Source of the DNA: a virus
Lineage: Duplodnaviria; Heunggongvirae; Uroviricota; Caudoviricetes
DNA: 50,225 bases
Virus record (IMG/VR): IMGVR_UViG_2585427621_000003
Strand: one strand, 5' to 3'
Each line of letters opens with the position of its first letter. The stretch's first letter is position 1. Of this stretch, positions 15,001-21,000 are shown piece by piece. A program made the position numbers.

Positions 15001-18000
15001 ACGCTTTTGCAACCGGCGTGCTCGGGTAAAAGAGGTTACTGATGCGTATAGAGTTTGTTTTGCCTTACCCGCCGACGGTGAACACCTACTGGCGACGTCG
15101 TGGCAGCACATATTTTGTATCAAAAGCCGGTGAGCGTTATCGCCGGGCTGTGGCGCTTATTGTTCGCCAGCAGCGGCTGAAATTAAGCCTGTCCGGACGG
15201 CTGGCAATAAAAATTATTGCAGAACCACCGGATAAGCGCCGCCGTGACCTGGACAACATTCTGAAAGCACCGCTGGATGCGCTGACGCATGCGGAAGTGC
15301 TCATTGATGACGAGCAGTTTGATGAAATCAATATTGTGCGCGGTCAGCCTGTGCCAGGTGGACGGCTGGGCGTGAAGATTTACGAAATCAGAGGTGGTAA
15401 CGATGGCGCGTGATATCCAGATGGTTCTTGAGCGATGGGGGGCATGGGCAGCAAATAATCATGAAGATGTAACATGGCCCTCGATAGCTGCTGGTTTTAA
15501 AGGATTAATCCCGACTAAAGTGAAATCACGTCCTAAGTGTTCTGATGATGACGCCATGATAATTTGTGGTTGTATGGCACGATTAAACAAGAATAATCAG
15601 TATTTGCACGATTTGTTGGTGGATTATTACGTAGGTGGAATGACATTTATGGCTCTTGCACGTAAGCATAGATGTTCTGATGGGCTTATTGGTAAAAGGC
15701 TTTATAAAGCGGAAGGTATTATTGAAGGAATGCTTATGGCTCTGAATGTCCGGTTAGATATGGATATGCGGTAGGGATATATAGTGATGAGGGTTATGTT
15801 TTCTGTGTTTATAATTAACATGTTTATTTTTTGATGGTCATGTATTGTGGAAGGTAGATAAAATGTTGCCTGGTGAATTGAAAATATTGATAATCAATCT
15901 TCATCATTAAATAAAAGGAGTGCTTATGTGGATTGTGTTAGTACTGTCACTGTCAACTCTCAGTTGGCATAAGGTAGTGGCTTTTTCATTGTTGACGGTG
16001 TCTGTTGTCCTGGCTGTGCTTAATGATATTATTGATTGGTCGGTGTTATTTTTTGTTGCTACAATCGTTTTTTTTATTATTTTGAAGTTCAACTGGAAAT
16101 ATAACGCCTGGGCTAAATCTATATATGAAGTTGGCATAGTTTTATCAGCCATAGCATTATTTTTCCATCTATGGCCAGGGTTTCACAATCCTGTAGTGCT
16201 AAATTCTGTTACTGTTGGCCCTCAAAGTACTCCCTATACAATGTATTTTAATTTTGATAAAGCGCTGGTGCCATTTTTGTTAGTCCTGTGTACATCTTCT
16301 TTGTTTAAAAAAGAAGTAAAATCAGAAGTGTCTTTGTGGAAGTGGGGGGCTCTGTCGCTCTCTGTTCCTCTTATCCTGTTTTTGGCTGTTTTTTTTGGTG
16401 GATTAAAGCCAGAGATTCATTTTCCTGAGTGGTTGCCAGAGTTTATATTGGCTAATTTGTTTTTTGTGTCTCTGGCAGAGGAATCATTATTTAGAGGGTA
16501 TATTCAATCACGGCTATCAGAAGTAACGTCTCCATTGGTTGCATTAATTGTGGCGGCTTTGTTGTTTGGTTTTTATCACTATTCAGGTGGTGCTTTACTT
16601 GTATTATTTGCCACGTTATCTGGTGTTGTGTATGGATTGTCATGGATGTGGAGTGGGCGTTTGTGGGTTGCCACCCTTTTCCATTTTGGTTTGAATCTGT
16701 GTCACTTGTTATTCTTTACCTATCCATTTTTAAAACATAATTGATTTTTTCTATGGTTTTAAATTTATAAGACTGAAAAATAGCAGGACGTGACATTTGC
16801 ATGAAAAATATGCACGGCAAAGCATTTACGTACGTAAAAAATCAGGTATGCTGTTAAGAGTGGTTATTTCGCCGCATAGCTTGACCCCGCCTCTGAGCGG
16901 GTTTTTTGTGCCCGCAAAGTAGCGCAGTGCGTTAAATGTGCTGGTAGTTATTAATACAGGTCTTTCAGCTTGCTGGCTTTTTCGACAAGAGTTATTGGTG
17001 TGTCACGTTAACCGGAAAGGGTAAAAAGACATGCTGAAACAGCAGGATATGACAGAAACCGCCAGAGTTGTGTTTGATGAATTAAGCGTCACCGAACCGG
17101 CGACGGTCGGGGAGATTGCGCAGAATACGTACCTTTCACGCGAGCGCTGCCAGTTAATACTGACCCAGCTGGTTATGCGGGTCTGGCAGACTATCAGTTC
17201 GGTTGTTACAGACGCCTTCAGTCCTGAAGGCTTTTTTATTTGTGGTAAATGGGCGGCTGGTGGGTGTTAGCGGCACCTGTCAGTCCTTTGCTTATGTGTT
17301 GATGATAATTTACCTTTTGGGGCTATAATTGAACTAACCAATTGCTAATGAAAGTAAAATTATAATGGTTGTTGTCTGTTCAGTTATCATGGTTTGCTCC
17401 CCAATTAATATTTTTCTTGAAAAGGATACGTTGTCACTTAAGCCCGGCTCAGTCGTTCTGGCCACCAAATGCATCAGGGCGCTTTTCCTTATGCATTATG
17501 GCAAAGTTAAAATTTTCGATATAAACCATTCCATAGTAAGTCAATATCTGGAAATTCAGCATAAGCTGACAAGAACTCATCTGACTGACGTTCCGCTTTA
17601 TCTGTCACTGGAACCCAACAACCCTGCGTTGGCTGAGGCTTTAATTACCAGCCAGAGATTTTCCGGAGATACCACGGATATGTTTCTTATGATGGCATGC
17701 CTGTCGCTGTTTGAATCAGATGAACGGATATTATTATTTTTAAGTGGATGTTTATCCAGTATAAGTGCCAAAGTCAGGGCGATAATTCAGACAGATATAT
17801 CAGCAAGCTGGACGCTTGGTGCGATTGCGTTACGCCTGCATATGAGTGAGAGTTTGTTAAAGATAAAACTGAAAAATGAAGGGCACATGTTCAGTCGCTT
17901 GTTGCTGGAAGAGCGGATGCGTGTTGCTGTCAATATGTTATGTTCCCGGCATGGATATGGACAGGCTGTAGCAGAAAAATGCGGTTATTCAAGCTGGTCC

Positions 18001-21000
18001 TACTTTATTTCTGTATTTCACCGCTATTATGGCTTCCCGCCAGACAGATATGTATCCAGGCAAGGGCTTGATTATTGATTTTCATCTGATTATTATTTTT
18101 TGACCCAGCCCTTTAGCTCAGTGGTGAGAGCGAGCGACTCATAATCGCCAGGTCGCTGGTTCAAATCCAGAAAGGGCCACCATCACATACCGCCATTAGC
18201 TCATCAGGAAAGAGCGCCAGCTTTCGAAGCTGGTTGCGCGGAGTTCGGGTCCCCGAAGGCGGTCCATTATCTGTATCCTGCGTTGTTAGCTCAGCCGGAC
18301 AGAGCAATTGCCTTCTAAGCAATCGGTCACTGGTTCGAATCCAGTACAACGCGCCACACTTATTTTCCCTGGCTCGCTTTTGCGGGCCTTTTTTTTAAAT
18401 GTCTCACAATTCAGGCGGTTGACTGTTGTCTGGTTTGCGGGGAGTTTGTTAAAAGAAACTGGCATGGTGAATCCCCCTGTGCGGAGGGGCAATCAGCGAG
18501 TAGGTATATGGGATAATCGCGGATTCAGGTGCTGGTACTGAATTCACCGGGAGGCACCCGGCACCATGCAATGGCACATAGCGCCACTCTCCAGCCCCTC
18601 TCCGGAGGGGCTTTCTTATGGACAAAAAAAGCCCGCGCAGGGAGACGCGGGCGGCAAGGAATAAACAACAAAACGTGAAGTAATATTTCAGCTGGCGAAT
18701 AATATCCGACAGTAATCACTCTGCGCAATAGCGCGGCCTTTTTCGTATTGCGGGCTGTTGTCTCTCTTCTGCCATTGTCCTGTAACTTCCGGANTTCAGC
18801 CCGCTCNTCATTTTACTCACAATATTATCCCGGCCGGGAGGATTCATGGCATTTAAACACTATGATGTTGTCAGGGCGGCGTCGCCGTCAGACCTTGCGG
18901 AAAAGCTGACACACAAACTGAAAGAGGGCTGGCAGCCATACGGCGGACCGGTTGCCATTACGCCGTACACACTGATGCAGGCGGTGGCTATTGAAGGAGA
19001 TCCACAGGTCGGCCCTTCATCTAAGCCGGACTGGTTCTACGTGGTTGTGCTTGCCGGACAGTCCAACGGCATGGCCTACGGTGAAGGGCTTCCGTTACCG
19101 GATTCTTACGATGCTCCGGATCCGCGCATTAAACAGCTGGCGCGCCGCAGCACGGTAACTCCGGGTGGAGAGAGTTGTACGTATAACGACATCATTCCGG
19201 CCGACCACTGCCTGCATGATGTGCAGGATATGAGTACGCTGAATCATCCGAAGGCAGACCTGAGCAAAGGGCAGTACGGCTGTGTCGGCCAGGGCTTACA
19301 TATTGCCAAAAAACTGCTTCCGTATATCCCGAATAACGCGGGGATCCTGCTGGTACCATGCTGTCGTGGTGGTTCTGCATTCACCCAGGGCGCTGAGGGG
19401 ACATTCAGTGCGGACACGGGGGCCAGCCAGGATTCGGCACGCTGGGGTGTGGGTAAACCGTTATATCAGGACCTGATTGCGCGCACTAAAGCTGCATTAC
19501 AGAAGAACCCGAAAAATGTGTTGCTGGCGGTGTGCTGGATGCAGGGAGAGTTTGACATGAGCGCCGCCACCCACGCACAGCAACCTGCGCTGTTTACAGC
19601 CATGCTGACACAGTTTCGTGCTGACCTCTCCGTGTTTAACGCGCAGTGCCATGGTGGCAGTGCTGCAGATGTGCCGTGGATTTGTGGTGATACGACGTAT
19701 TACTGGAAAAATACATACGCTACCCAGTACGACACCGTGTACGGCGGGTATAAAAACAGGGAGAGTGAGGGCGTTTATTTTGTGCCCTTCATGACAGACG
19801 GTAACGGCGTCAATACCGCCACTAACGCGCCGGCAGAAGATCCGGATATTCCGGCATCAGGATATTACGGTGCGGCATCGAGAACGAATGGAAACCAGGT
19901 ATCATCAAACCGCCCGACACATTTCAGTTCATGGGCGCGCAGGAGCATTATTCCGGATCGTCTGGCAACCGCTATTCTGAACGCAGCCGGGCGCACCTCC
20001 GCCTTCATCAGTGGTAAGGCACCGGAAATCAAACCCTCGCCCGGCGGCAACACGCCATCGGGTCCGTCTGCAGATACGTCCGTTCGCACAATCTCCCTGC
20101 TGCCGGCAGCCGGAGAGGCTGCTGCGCAGGGCTGGAGCATTAAGGATGGCGGAATTCAGTTGTCAGATGGTGTATTTAAGATCACCAGGCAGAGCAATAA
20201 AACCTGGTCCCTGACGCATCCGGTGGATGACGCAATTACCCTGCTGACACAGGGCGGCAGACTGACCTGTAAGTTCCGCCTGTCAGGCGCACTGACCAAC
20301 AATCAGTTCGGGCTGGGGATTTATCTGTATACGGATGCTCCCGTTCCTGATGGTGTGGCGATGACGGGTACCGGTAATCCGTTCCTGATGTCGTACTTCA
20401 CTCAGACCACTGACGGCAGAGTGAATCTGATGCATCACAGGAAAGCCGGAAACACGAAGCTGGGGGAGTTCGGCGATTACGGTAACGACTGGCAGACGCT
20501 GGAGCTGGTGTTCACCGCCGGCAGTGCCACGGTTACTCCGAAACTGAATGGAGTGGCTGGCCCGGCATTCCAGGTTATAAAAGACAGTCTGACACTGGGA
20601 CTGAATGCGCTGACGCTGACGGATGTTACAAAAAATGCAGCGTATGGCGTTGAGATAGAAAGTCTGGTGCTGGAGATAAATGCACCGGCAGCATAATAAA
20701 AAAAGAGCCAGCGACTGACCTGAAAGAAGACGCTGGCTAAAAGGCCTTATATGTTTGTAGAGACTTATTTTTCACAGACAGCAATGATGCCTGTCAATAT
20801 ATTATCAATATGCGGATTGAACCGCCCCGGAAATCCTGGAGACTAAACTCCCTGAGAAAGAGGTAAACAGGATGACTAAAAATACTCGTTTTTCCCCCGA
20901 AGTCCGTCAGCGGGCGATTCGTATGGTTCTGGAAAGTCAGGATGAATATGACTCACAGTGGGCGGCAATTTGTTCCATTGCCCCAAAGATTGGCTGTACG

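Follow-up and report, generated by a model that had tools for sequence, protein, structure and literature searches.

One described counterpart of the locus analyzed here is the late control region of phage 933W. Its late promoter PR' overlaps the end of the antiterminator gene Q, which itself ends about 440 bp before the tRNA genes. In Sp5, the Stx2a prophage of Sakai that is near-identical to 933W, the start site for this type of promoter has been mapped experimentally by dRNA-seq; the first hairpin after PR' is read through, and the mapped terminator tR' is the second one, at +258. This PR'-qut-tR' region is the source of the StxS sRNA. Beyond late control, further counterparts have been described. 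The CPBP/Rce1 family of intramembrane proteases includes two solved proteins, MmRce1 (4cad) and SpdC of Staphylococcus aureus (6u0o). PsrA, PsrB, and PatE are AraC-like regulators encoded by prophages that O157:H7 strains of enterohemorrhagic Escherichia coli (EHEC) carry; PsrA, also given in the literature as ecs1087 and z1789, has been characterized and regulates both LEE type III secretion and the GAD acid-resistance island. YdeO and GadX are chromosomal AraC-family activators of GAD.

We analyzed a window of 50,225 nucleotides from an IMG/VR record of a Caudoviricetes virus (IMGVR_UViG_2585427621_000003). The whole window represents Sp4 (CP-933M-like), a defective prophage of E. coli O157:H7: identity to Sakai Sp4 is 99.6-99.9%, and positions 15780-18100 are 100% identical to many O157:H7 genomes. 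The genes at the equivalent place in Sakai Sp4 are ECs_1084-1087; in the other numbering, Z1786-Z1789 run consecutively, and ECs1085-1087 (a CPBP gene, a 79-aa ORF, and an AraC-type ORF) correspond to Z1787-Z1789. GC content is 35-47% over 15600-18150 and 52-57% on either flank. An earlier note, made from the sequence alone, had described about 2.3 kb of low-GC cargo interposed between Q and the tRNAs, which almost abut in Stx phages. Both observations hold, the features sit where that note had placed them, and the DNA was rightly recognized as cargo. A total of 539 complete E. coli genomes carry the same 2.3 kb with a coverage of at least 80%. Its right edge is marked by three tRNA genes on the plus strand at 18107-18356, ileZ (CAT anticodon), argN, and argO, identified by ARAGORN, Rfam, and similarity (92.6%) to the tRNA region of 933W. 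Probably, the interval is no single system but a mosaic in Sp4 whose three pieces were inherited separately. The locus is already known and ordinary: it was proposed as the best candidate for an uncharacterized system, and both Z1787 and psrA are O157:H7 prophage genes that have each been mutated and phenotyped.

The arrangement of the pieces depends on the position of the late promoter. Q (ECs1084/Z1786; plus strand, 15403-15774) belongs to the PF06530 family (Pfam Phage_antitermQ, E = 8.7e-52). A homologue of the 933W PR' lies on the plus strand at 16825-16866, as located by BLAST and alignment to the annotated 933W PR'/qut. The -35 element TTTACG (16825-16830), the 16-nt spacer, the qut-like initial transcribed motif AAGAGTGGTTA (16856-16866), and the hairpin are all kept in Sp4; the -10 element is TATGCT (16847-16852), and the PR'-qut-hairpin region of 933W as a whole aligns at 16825-16907, 3' of the CPBP gene. 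Within the window, the 933W-type qut motif has a single occurrence, at 16856. Sequence comparison across related loci indicates that it co-varies with the family of Q: of 36 loci with a PF06530-type Q, 34 contain the 11-mer, which was not found in any of the 29 loci with a DUF1133-type Q or the 3 with a 933N/Stx2k-type Q. The predicted PR' at 16825-16852 is based on this co-variation, on homology, and on conservation. The earlier note had placed a candidate PR' at 15866-15894 and concluded that the CPBP gene, as the first gene behind it, should be switched on with the late genes; the homologue lies downstream of the CPBP gene, and neither claim is supported.

Sp4 departs from 933W in several ways. 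Where PR' overlaps the end of Q in 933W, about 1.05 kb, the CPBP cassette, separates the two in Sp4. Compared with 933W and Sp5, Sp4 also lacks the second terminator and the StxS body of 200 nt; one related locus (L099) has both after a diverged CPBP allele (62% identity). Sp4 Q shares 79% amino acid identity with Q of 933W and is slightly nearer to the DLP12/82-type Q of phage mEp332 (84%); because the region downstream of 82-type Q differs, the 933W-type qut is a putative target of Sp4 Q. The hairpin with a T6 run at 16886-16907 (plus strand; terminator scan) resembles an intrinsic terminator, matches the first hairpin after 933W PR', and forms the left edge of a conserved backbone core. Its position is kept in all related loci, with a different yet still paired hairpin in strain B1_2; it folds at -14.3 kcal/mol, and the z-score (-1.1) is weak. 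A terminator role is uncertain because the Sp5 equivalent is read through and tR' lies beyond it.

This core is the second piece of the proposed mosaic: the 933W-type PR'-qut-hairpin (16825-16907) would be followed by a frameshifted 65-aa winged-helix-like ORF and its terminators. Of 5426 E. coli genomes, 2158 contain the core DNA, as do 107 phage records. The ORF itself (ECs1086/Z1788; plus strand, 17031-17270; phrog_331, E = 5.7e-32) is phage backbone and not cargo. It had been described as a 79-aa HTH-like ORF of the cargo cluster; an ORF is present there, with weak HTH character (Pfam TrmB, E = 0.0026, 18 bits, under the 25.6-bit cut-off). The 79-aa ORF derives from a conserved 65-aa ORF by a 1-bp deletion (GTTAT-GCGGG), and NCBI PGAP calls it a frameshifted pseudogene. 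The intact form occurs in L23 of phiP27, among others. L23 occupies the same place just behind a PR'-like region, and its first 49 residues are 98% identical to the Sp4 copy, which differs in ending in an unrelated 30-residue tail. A terminator-like hairpin with a T-run follows the ORF on the plus strand at 17214-17237 (terminator scan and folds) and is conserved across phiP27, PapM-36-2, and an Stx2k phage; beyond it is a second long hairpin at 17255-17285.

The third piece would occupy slot 2, from the backbone to the tRNAs, and consist of psrA with its own promoter. psrA (ECs1087/Z1789; plus strand, 17365-18078) encodes 237 aa with matches to HTH_18 (5.7e-09) and HTH_AraC (1.2e-08), in agreement with the earlier assignment to the AraC family. 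The NCBIfam YdeO model aligns almost end to end (E = 8.9e-30; residues 1-229 against 1-230 of 253) at 104 bits. Because this falls far short of the 348-bit equivalog cut-off, PsrA is a paralogue of YdeO and not YdeO itself; as part of the proposed mosaic, it would act as a YdeO-like AraC activator. The two proteins have an N-terminal VCSVI motif in common, and induction of gadE has been reported for both; unlike YdeO, PsrA is phage-borne and AT-rich. The earlier note's statement that prophage AraC regulators of EHEC control virulence and acid resistance is accurate, and the ORF here is one of them: it is PsrA itself, with no sequence-level difference. A promoter-like site, ATGATA-16-TATAAT, at 17302-17329 (plus strand; 10/12, the region's top score in the scan) travels with the psrA cassette, being common to phiSTEC1575-Stx2k and absent where a methyltransferase replaces psrA. 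PsrB-like copies, 90-91% identical, fill the same slot between small ORF and tRNAs in other prophages. Reviews locate Z1789 on OI-50/CP-933N; the closed EDL933 and Sakai genomes place it in the Sp4/CP-933M-like prophage.

Because the PR' homologue at 16825-16907 follows the CPBP gene, the CPBP cassette lies between Q and PR', and psrA lies behind PR'. The first piece would be a one-gene cassette (Z1787/ECs1085) in this slot 1. The gene (plus strand, 15926-16744) encodes 272 aa from the ATG at 15926, or 274 aa from the GTG at 15920, and matches the Rce1-like profile PF02517 (E = 1.4e-19; 70.6 bits, cut-off 22.4). The description as a multi-pass CPBP protein with intact EExxxR, FxxxH, and HxxxN motifs is confirmed, by the profile and by EESLFR (185-190), FGFYH (214-218), and HFGLN (253-257); the term metalloprotease is superseded, as current classification puts the family among the glutamic proteases. 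The gene is real and under purifying selection: dN/dS is 0.12-0.23 among prophage alleles, it is not an artefact of sequencing, and the gene is annotated intact throughout the matches listed. A confident AlphaFold2 model (mean pLDDT 92.3) has 8 long helices; SpdC (6u0o_A) and MmRce1 head the list of its PDB matches. These resemblances are distant: identity is only 13-17%, TM-scores are ~0.4-0.5, and no sequence-level PDB match was found. Z1787 is a member of a separate enterobacterial subfamily whose N-terminal half shows conservation of its own. An extramembrane segment at residues 84-113, PGFHN...MYxNFDKA, is conserved and specific to the family. The site at 15866-15894 (TTGCCT-17-GATAAT; plus strand; consensus scan 9/12), in the AT-rich spacer between Q and the CPBP gene, is kept, with a -35 of TTGTCA, ahead of an 83%-identical allele whose coding region has dS = 0.53; on this conservation and on the expression of Z1787 relative to Q in uninduced LB (below), it is more likely the CPBP gene's own predicted sigma-70-like promoter.

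Do the protease and the regulator nevertheless form one regulated defence or host-manipulation unit, expressed late from 15866-15894, with the regulator controlling the protease or the two serving one pathway? Of 571 complete genomes with CPBP, 539 (94%) have the two genes side by side in the same orientation, and these genomes are largely one clone (O157:H7 and close relatives); both are AT-rich cargo, host-interaction effects have been reported for each, and the promoter-like site is real and conserved. Against these points, the PR'-qut homologue with the window's sole qut motif, terminator-like hairpins, and a backbone ORF stand between them, and comparison of the Q-tRNA interval across related phages and prophages, as the earlier note had proposed, reveals that the two slots vary independently. 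Slot 1 is either empty or filled by the CPBP gene, a GIY-YIG nuclease, a 205-aa ORF, or a 141-aa ORF; in slot 2 there is a PsrA-like gene, a DNA methyltransferase, or the two together. Among 64 evaluable IMG/VR loci, 7 carry CPBP with PsrA and 2 CPBP with the methyltransferase, while 19 have a PsrA-like gene and 34 a methyltransferase without CPBP. Complete E. coli genomes have 576 CPBP loci and 1323 psrA-like loci, and only 539 genomes carry the joint 2.3 kb. Most PsrA-like genes are found without CPBP, among them a second copy in O157 genomes, where CPBP is single-copy. Where diverged CPBP alleles follow Q, no AraC gene accompanies them. Four CPBP alleles (100/94% at the nucleotide level; 83%, 62%, and 59% at the amino acid level) each lie directly 3' of a PF06530-type Q, and a PR'-like promoter lies 3' of the gene in 3 of 3 contexts examined, the 62% and 59% alleles among them and the 83% allele outside the count. 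Nor do the genes co-vary positively in expression: in published RNA-seq, with low counts and possible cross-mapping of psrA reads to psrB, the RPKM of Z1787 in uninduced LB (39) is ~8x that of Q (5), and that of Z1789 is 7, antibiotics raise Z1787 by 2.3 log2 and lower Z1789 to 0, and the Pearson correlation of the two genes over 11 conditions is -0.52. The PsrA/PsrB targets in print are gadE, yhiF, and hdeA, and PADLOC defence models give no match to the CPBP protein. The proposed pairing is not borne out and is very unlikely, though a lineage-specific functional interaction of the two genes may exist; separate inheritance accounts for the locus better.

What Z1787 does by itself admits several readings. 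It could shield the lysogen from incoming phages, by superinfection exclusion or abortive infection, or from membrane-targeting bacteriocins, as proposed for some Gram-positive CPBP/"Abi" proteins. Such a role would suit a prophage-cargo membrane protein that is expressed in the lysogen and recurs after Q as diverged alleles under purifying selection, and bacteriocin self-immunity has been suggested for family members. We regard it as unlikely: "Abi" is a legacy Pfam name no longer deemed appropriate, from which the link to abortive infection drawn earlier derives; PADLOC gives no match; none of the contexts seen has an adjacent bacteriocin or toxin gene; close relatives stand singly on the chromosome, in housekeeping neighbourhoods; and the sole reported phenotype concerns host-cell signalling. 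About equally doubtful is a non-proteolytic scaffold or regulator that modulates a membrane enzyme or sensor kinase, like SpdC. SpdC in the SagB-SpdC complex is the best structural match (probability 0.99, TM 0.46-0.49), and residues 84-113 offer a possible partner interface, but E185, E186, R190, H218, H253, and N257 are invariant in 33 homologues with identity down to 47%, which argues for retained catalysis.

We favor instead a putatively active inner-membrane protease that would act alone on a membrane-anchored bacterial substrate, because the motifs are intact, selection is purifying, and relatives stand alone: ~50%-identical proteins in Hafnia and Providencia are encoded by lone genes between modF and galE/gpmA, without a partner gene. 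In the lysogen, Z1787 would be transcribed from its own conserved predicted promoter; upon induction, PR read-through via Q could reach it as well, making it an early and not a late gene. psrA, not the CPBP gene, would join the Q-dependent late transcript because it sits behind PR'.

The published phenotype can be assigned to this gene. Jandu et al. (2009, PLoS One) knocked out Z1787 as a "putative protease on OI-50" and reported that IFN-gamma/STAT-1 signalling was no longer blocked by the mutant, with only partial complementation. Both of their primers match exactly within the CPBP ORF, at 15943-15963 and 16418-16437, so that the ORF is Z1787. These authors supposed a released protease; sequence and model point instead to a polytopic membrane enzyme, and any effect on host cells is therefore probably indirect. 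Cleavage by Z1787 may alter the envelope or released factors, which could explain the loss of STAT-1 inhibition; the phenotype could also reflect effects of the mutation on the promoter region and on psrA just downstream.

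The interval between the antiterminator gene Q (15403-15774; Pfam Phage_antitermQ, E 8.7e-52) and three tRNA genes (18107-18356) carries a gene for a CPBP/Rce1-like protein (15926-16744; PF02517, E 1.4e-19), a 79-aa ORF (17031-17270), and a gene for an AraC-type protein (17365-18078; HTH_18, HTH_AraC). ORF, GC, and profile checks bear out the earlier note's description of a low-GC insertion with these three ORFs, the GC content being 35-47% over 15600-18150 versus 52-57% on both sides. The short distance between Q and the tRNAs in Stx phages was also described correctly: Q of the Stx phage 933W ends only ~440 bp before the same tRNAs. 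Many chromosomes of E. coli O157:H7 contain the region 15780-18100 at 100% identity, and the whole window matches prophage Sp4 of O157:H7 Sakai at 99.6-99.9% identity. In the Sakai annotation of Sp4, ECs_1084 is Q, ECs_1085 a "CAAX amino terminal protease", and ECs_1087, which follows ECs_1086, an "AraC-family regulator". Rfam returns no family within 15780-18100, only the tRNAs and STnc100 downstream; the sRNA HnrS was considered as a product of 15780-18100 and rejected, as it sits in Sp9, Sp10, and Sp12.

The cluster was observed correctly, but its interpretation as a paired, late-expressed, and uncharacterised system does not hold. Both the regulator, PsrA, and the protease gene, Z1787, are already known from the EHEC literature. 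The AraC-type protein has a DNA-binding domain with a C-terminal double helix-turn-helix (HTH_18, E 5.7e-09, 36.6 bits vs 33.6; HTH_AraC, E 1.2e-08, 35.3 bits vs 26.6). Its likeness to YdeO runs along the full length (E 8.9e-30; residues 1-229 against 1-230 of 253) and so supports the 237-aa start at 17365. ECs_1087 occupies the matching position in Sakai Sp4, Z1786-Z1789 are consecutive, and "psrA (ecs1087, Sp4)" is the designation used in a 2026 paper by the group that gave the gene its name. Passages in two reviews citing Tree et al. 2011 equate psrA with z1789, an AraC/XylS regulator. The AraC regulator of the window is PsrA. In the review passages on Tree et al. 2011, PsrA increases GadE and YhiF and, through them, represses LEE type III secretion, and its paralogue PsrB, 90% identical, is described as binding the gadE and hdeA promoters. 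The statement in the earlier note that AraC-type regulators of EHEC prophages control virulence and acid resistance thus applies to this very gene.

The protease gene has a history of its own. In a published RNA-seq table of EDL933, Z1787, Z1788, and Z1789 come after Z1786, which is named there as the Q antiterminator. Jandu et al. 2009 give two primers for Z1787, and each has an exact match in the CPBP ORF (15943-15963 and 16418-16437). That study reported a 2.66-fold induction of Z1787 upon contact with HEp-2 cells, and a deletion mutant that no longer blocked IFN-gamma-induced STAT-1 phosphorylation and was only partially complemented. Since PsrA and Z1787 have both been studied, neither gene is uncharacterised.

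The CPBP gene was further proposed to come first after a late promoter at 15866-15894 and to be switched on with the late genes. The homologue of the 933W late promoter region lies instead 3' of the CPBP gene: 933W positions 1667-1749, which contain the annotated PR', qut, and first hairpin, align to window positions 16825-16907. Common to both are the -35 element TTTACG, a 16-nt spacer, an invariant TAAGAGTGGTTA, and a hairpin with a T-run; the -10 element differs, TATGCT in the window versus TATCAT in 933W. The start site of a 933W-type PR' has been mapped by dRNA-seq in Sp5, the Sakai Stx2a prophage. Transcription in Sp5 continues past the counterpart of the 16886-16907 hairpin, and tR' lies at +258. 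Fold z-scores of the three core hairpins are weak (-1.1 to -1.4), so these hairpins are supported by their positional conservation and not by their energy.

Comparison across IMG/VR loci links this region to the type of Q that accompanies it. Of 36 loci with a PF06530-type Q, 34 have the 11-mer AAGAGTGGTTA just 5' of the hairpin, and two have a version that differs by one base. The 11-mer is absent from all 29 loci with a DUF1133-type Q, where a different conserved sequence and hairpin stand in its position, and from all 3 loci with a 933N/Stx2k-type Q. At the level of sequence, this co-variation with the Q family is the pattern expected of a Q-utilisation site. The Sp4 Q is 79% identical to Q933W and slightly closer (84%) to the 82/DLP12-type Q, whose downstream region is unrelated. 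That region, with its presumed PR', is carried by two loci with a related Q (L085 and L092); it was sought directly behind the Sp4 Q and is absent, with only chance matches of 10-16 nt. PR'-like promoters (TTTACG-16-TATGAT or TATTGT) also lie 3' of two diverged CPBP alleles, with 62% and 59% amino acid identity. One E. coli prophage carrying the 62% allele (L099, 5900-6330) has, 3' of its PR'-like promoter, a 933W-like StxS body and tR' (GCCAGCC...GGCTGGCTTTTTTT) and then the small ORF; Sp4 is without this ~200-nt StxS-tR' segment.

With the PR' homologue at 16825-16907, the CPBP cassette would lie between Q and PR'. The predicted Q-dependent late transcript would then include psrA, the tRNAs, and the esterase gene and leave the protease outside. 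The position of the late promoter bears on how induction of a defective prophage could alter acid resistance and type III secretion. It also touches the 2009 mutant, as the Z1787 deletion is located directly upstream of PR' and psrA. Polar effects of that deletion are conceivable, and its partly complemented STAT-1 phenotype merits re-testing.

The 79-aa ORF that follows PR' is a damaged piece of phage backbone. Relative to phiP27 L23 and three other loci, the Sp4 small ORF is short of one G (GTTAT-GCGGG), and the resulting frameshift swaps the last 16 residues of a 65-aa protein for an unrelated 30-residue tail. NCBI PGAP calls it a frameshifted pseudogene, while some otherwise 99.6%-identical genomes are annotated with a "hypothetical protein" there. 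The intact 65-aa ORF is a member of phrog_331; an intact homologue reaches 18 bits against the winged-helix family TrmB, below the cut-off of 25.6 (E 0.0026), and the frameshifted Sp4 version has no Pfam or NCBIfam match. No other part of the interval is nearly as widespread as the ~450 bp at 16850-17300, which occur in 107 phage records and in 2158 of the 5426 complete E. coli genomes. Carriers include Stx2 phages, phiP27, and SfV, and most have neither the CPBP nor the AraC gene. In many E. coli lambdoid prophages, the phrog_331 ORF stands with a highly conserved 110-nt leader directly behind a PR'-type region, and it is found alongside at least 3 different Q families (loci L019-L098).

Around this backbone element, the interval offers two slots, one from Q to the late promoter, filled in the window by the CPBP gene, and one from the small ORF to the tRNAs, filled by psrA. 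Both are occupied by different genes in different phages. In phiP27 the order is Q, GIY-YIG nuclease, small ORF, DNA methyltransferase, tRNAs, and stx2e; in PapM-36-2 it is Q, CPBP, small ORF, methyltransferase, and tRNAs. An AraC gene precedes the tRNAs in phiSTEC1575-Stx2k (Q, small ORFs, 141-aa ORF, small ORF, AraC, tRNAs, stx2k), in B1_2 (Q-like DUF1133, small ORF, AraC, tRNAs), and in AH20K059 (Q, 205-aa ORF, small ORF, AraC, tRNAs). We anchored IMG/VR loci on the small ORF, using the first 49 codons of the window's own copy as query. The 64 evaluable loci divide into CPBP with PsrA (7), CPBP with methyltransferase (2), PsrA-like without CPBP (19), methyltransferase without CPBP (34), and neither (2).

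Among complete E. coli genomes, 571 carry the CPBP gene (576 places) and 725 carry psrA-like genes (1323 places); 539 genomes, mostly of O157:H7 and close relatives, contain the joint 2.3 kb. Diverged CPBP alleles directly follow Q with no AraC gene nearby in E. albertii (83% identity), E. coli (62%), and Shigella (59%), and a 55% allele sits behind a lambda-type Q, again without a nearby AraC gene. What is stably linked is therefore Q and CPBP, not CPBP and AraC. The view of the two genes as a co-inherited unit does not survive these comparisons, given the varying combinations over the 64 loci, the diverged CPBP alleles without AraC, and the PsrA-like genes without CPBP.

If the site at 15866-15894 is not the late promoter, it is probably the CPBP gene's own. 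The 150-bp spacer between Q and CPBP is kept ahead of the 83% allele at 88% mean column identity, with a coding dS of 0.53; the conserved part includes the predicted promoter, which reads TTGTCA-17-GATAAT before that allele. In the published RNA-seq of EDL933 in LB, where counts are low, RPKM values are 5 for Q, 39 for Z1787, 11 for Z1788, and 7 for Z1789. With antibiotics, also at low counts, Z1787 and Z1788 rise by 2.3 and 2.1 log2, and Z1789 and Q fall to 0. Over 11 conditions, the correlation between Z1787 and Z1789 is negative and not significant (Pearson -0.52). Because of the low counts, we take these data as supporting evidence only; they fit a CPBP gene that is expressed in the lysogen and separately controlled.

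The assignment of the protein to the CPBP family, with its motifs intact, is confirmed. The match to Rce1-like (PF02517) reaches 70.6 bits versus a cut-off of 22.4 (E 1.4e-19). EExxxR is present as EESLFR (185-190), FxxxH as FGFYH (214-218), and HxxxN/D as HFGLN (253-257), and the motif residues are invariant in 33 homologues. Prophage CPBP alleles are under purifying selection (dN/dS 0.12-0.23). In two Sp4-type IMG/VR loci, L039 and L035, the distance from Q to the small ORF is 1258 versus 1260 bp, and in L039 the CPBP ORF is undetected at ≥50% coverage, which suggests an occasional CPBP frameshift in some assemblies. The AlphaFold2 model (pLDDT 92.3, pTM 0.89) has a predicted polytopic helical membrane fold like that of MmRce1 and SpdC. 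Foldseek ranks SpdC (6u0o_A, probability 0.99) and MmRce1 (4cad, probability 0.87) first and second, with weak E-values (0.04-0.07) and all other matches at probability ≤0.07; these two are the only solved CPBP members. The family profile has no match among PDB sequences. The family match and the model indicate that Z1787 is a polytopic membrane protein, not a released protease.

The best reading of its function is that of an active, stand-alone inner-membrane protease, predicted to act on a membrane-anchored substrate of the bacterium; host STAT-1 signalling would then be affected indirectly. Relatives with ~50% identity are found as single genes on the chromosome, in Hafnia and Providencia between modF and galE or gpmA and in Dickeya at a different site, with no conserved partner gene beside them in these three genera. 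A scaffold role, like that of SpdC, the first-ranked structural match, is a possible alternative to proteolysis, to be set beside the invariant motif residues. An exclusion or immunity role is also possible, and neither the CPBP protein nor the 79-aa ORF nor the AraC protein matches a PADLOC-DB defence model. Neither the suggested link to abortive infection nor the label of metalloprotease is supported: "Abi" is an outdated name of the CPBP domain, whose family is now classed with the glutamic proteases.

Returning to the protease reading, other bacterial CPBP proteins are reported to modulate sensor kinases. We consider it an unlikely extension that phages keep a lysogeny-expressed intramembrane protease in the slot between Q and PR', insulated from late transcription, and that its target is a host envelope or signalling protein such as, by analogy, a sensor kinase. 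In O157:H7, the protease might then feed the acid-resistance and type III secretion circuitry hijacked by PsrA. Were this so, such an input would account for the STAT-1 effect of deleting Z1787.

For Z1786-Z1789, reviews and the original annotation give OI-50/CP-933N as the location, which conflicts with the closed EDL933 and Sakai genomes. In closed EDL933, the cluster is at 1.264-1.267 Mb, within an Sp4/CP-933M-like prophage (L110, 1.250-1.280 Mb), and Sakai has the same arrangement. The EDL933 prophage at potC/potB with nleL, espN, and espK (L018, 1.628-1.677 Mb) has a different Q and is without the CPBP or AraC gene. A second copy of the cluster in Sp6/CP-933N was likewise rejected: the Q there is different, and both the CPBP and the AraC gene are missing. 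The OI-50/CP-933N placement may reflect a mis-join in the first assembly.

Further features surround the tRNAs and the late genes. A promoter-like TTGATT-17-TATTAT at 18068-18096 (+) overlaps the 3' end of psrA, 11 nt ahead of the first tRNA; its position is that of the 933W tRNA promoter 'pT', but its sequence is different and is shared with the Stx2k phage. An sRNA match to STnc100 (RF02076) at 18433-18623 (+) scores 138 bits versus a gathering score of 47 (E 1.6e-31) and is located 3' of the tRNA cluster and its terminator and 5' of the esterase gene. Two ORF pairs of equal lengths (108 + 296 aa) at 20872-22085 and 25327-26540 (+) align to Sakai-annotated IS629. They flank a segment with a PerC-family/pchA-like gene (104 aa) and the lysis genes (minus strand, 22290-24405). 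Because IS629-like pairs flank this minus-strand lysis segment, the late operon is interrupted, which fits a defective prophage; in Sakai and EDL933 the lysis genes are inverted in the same way.
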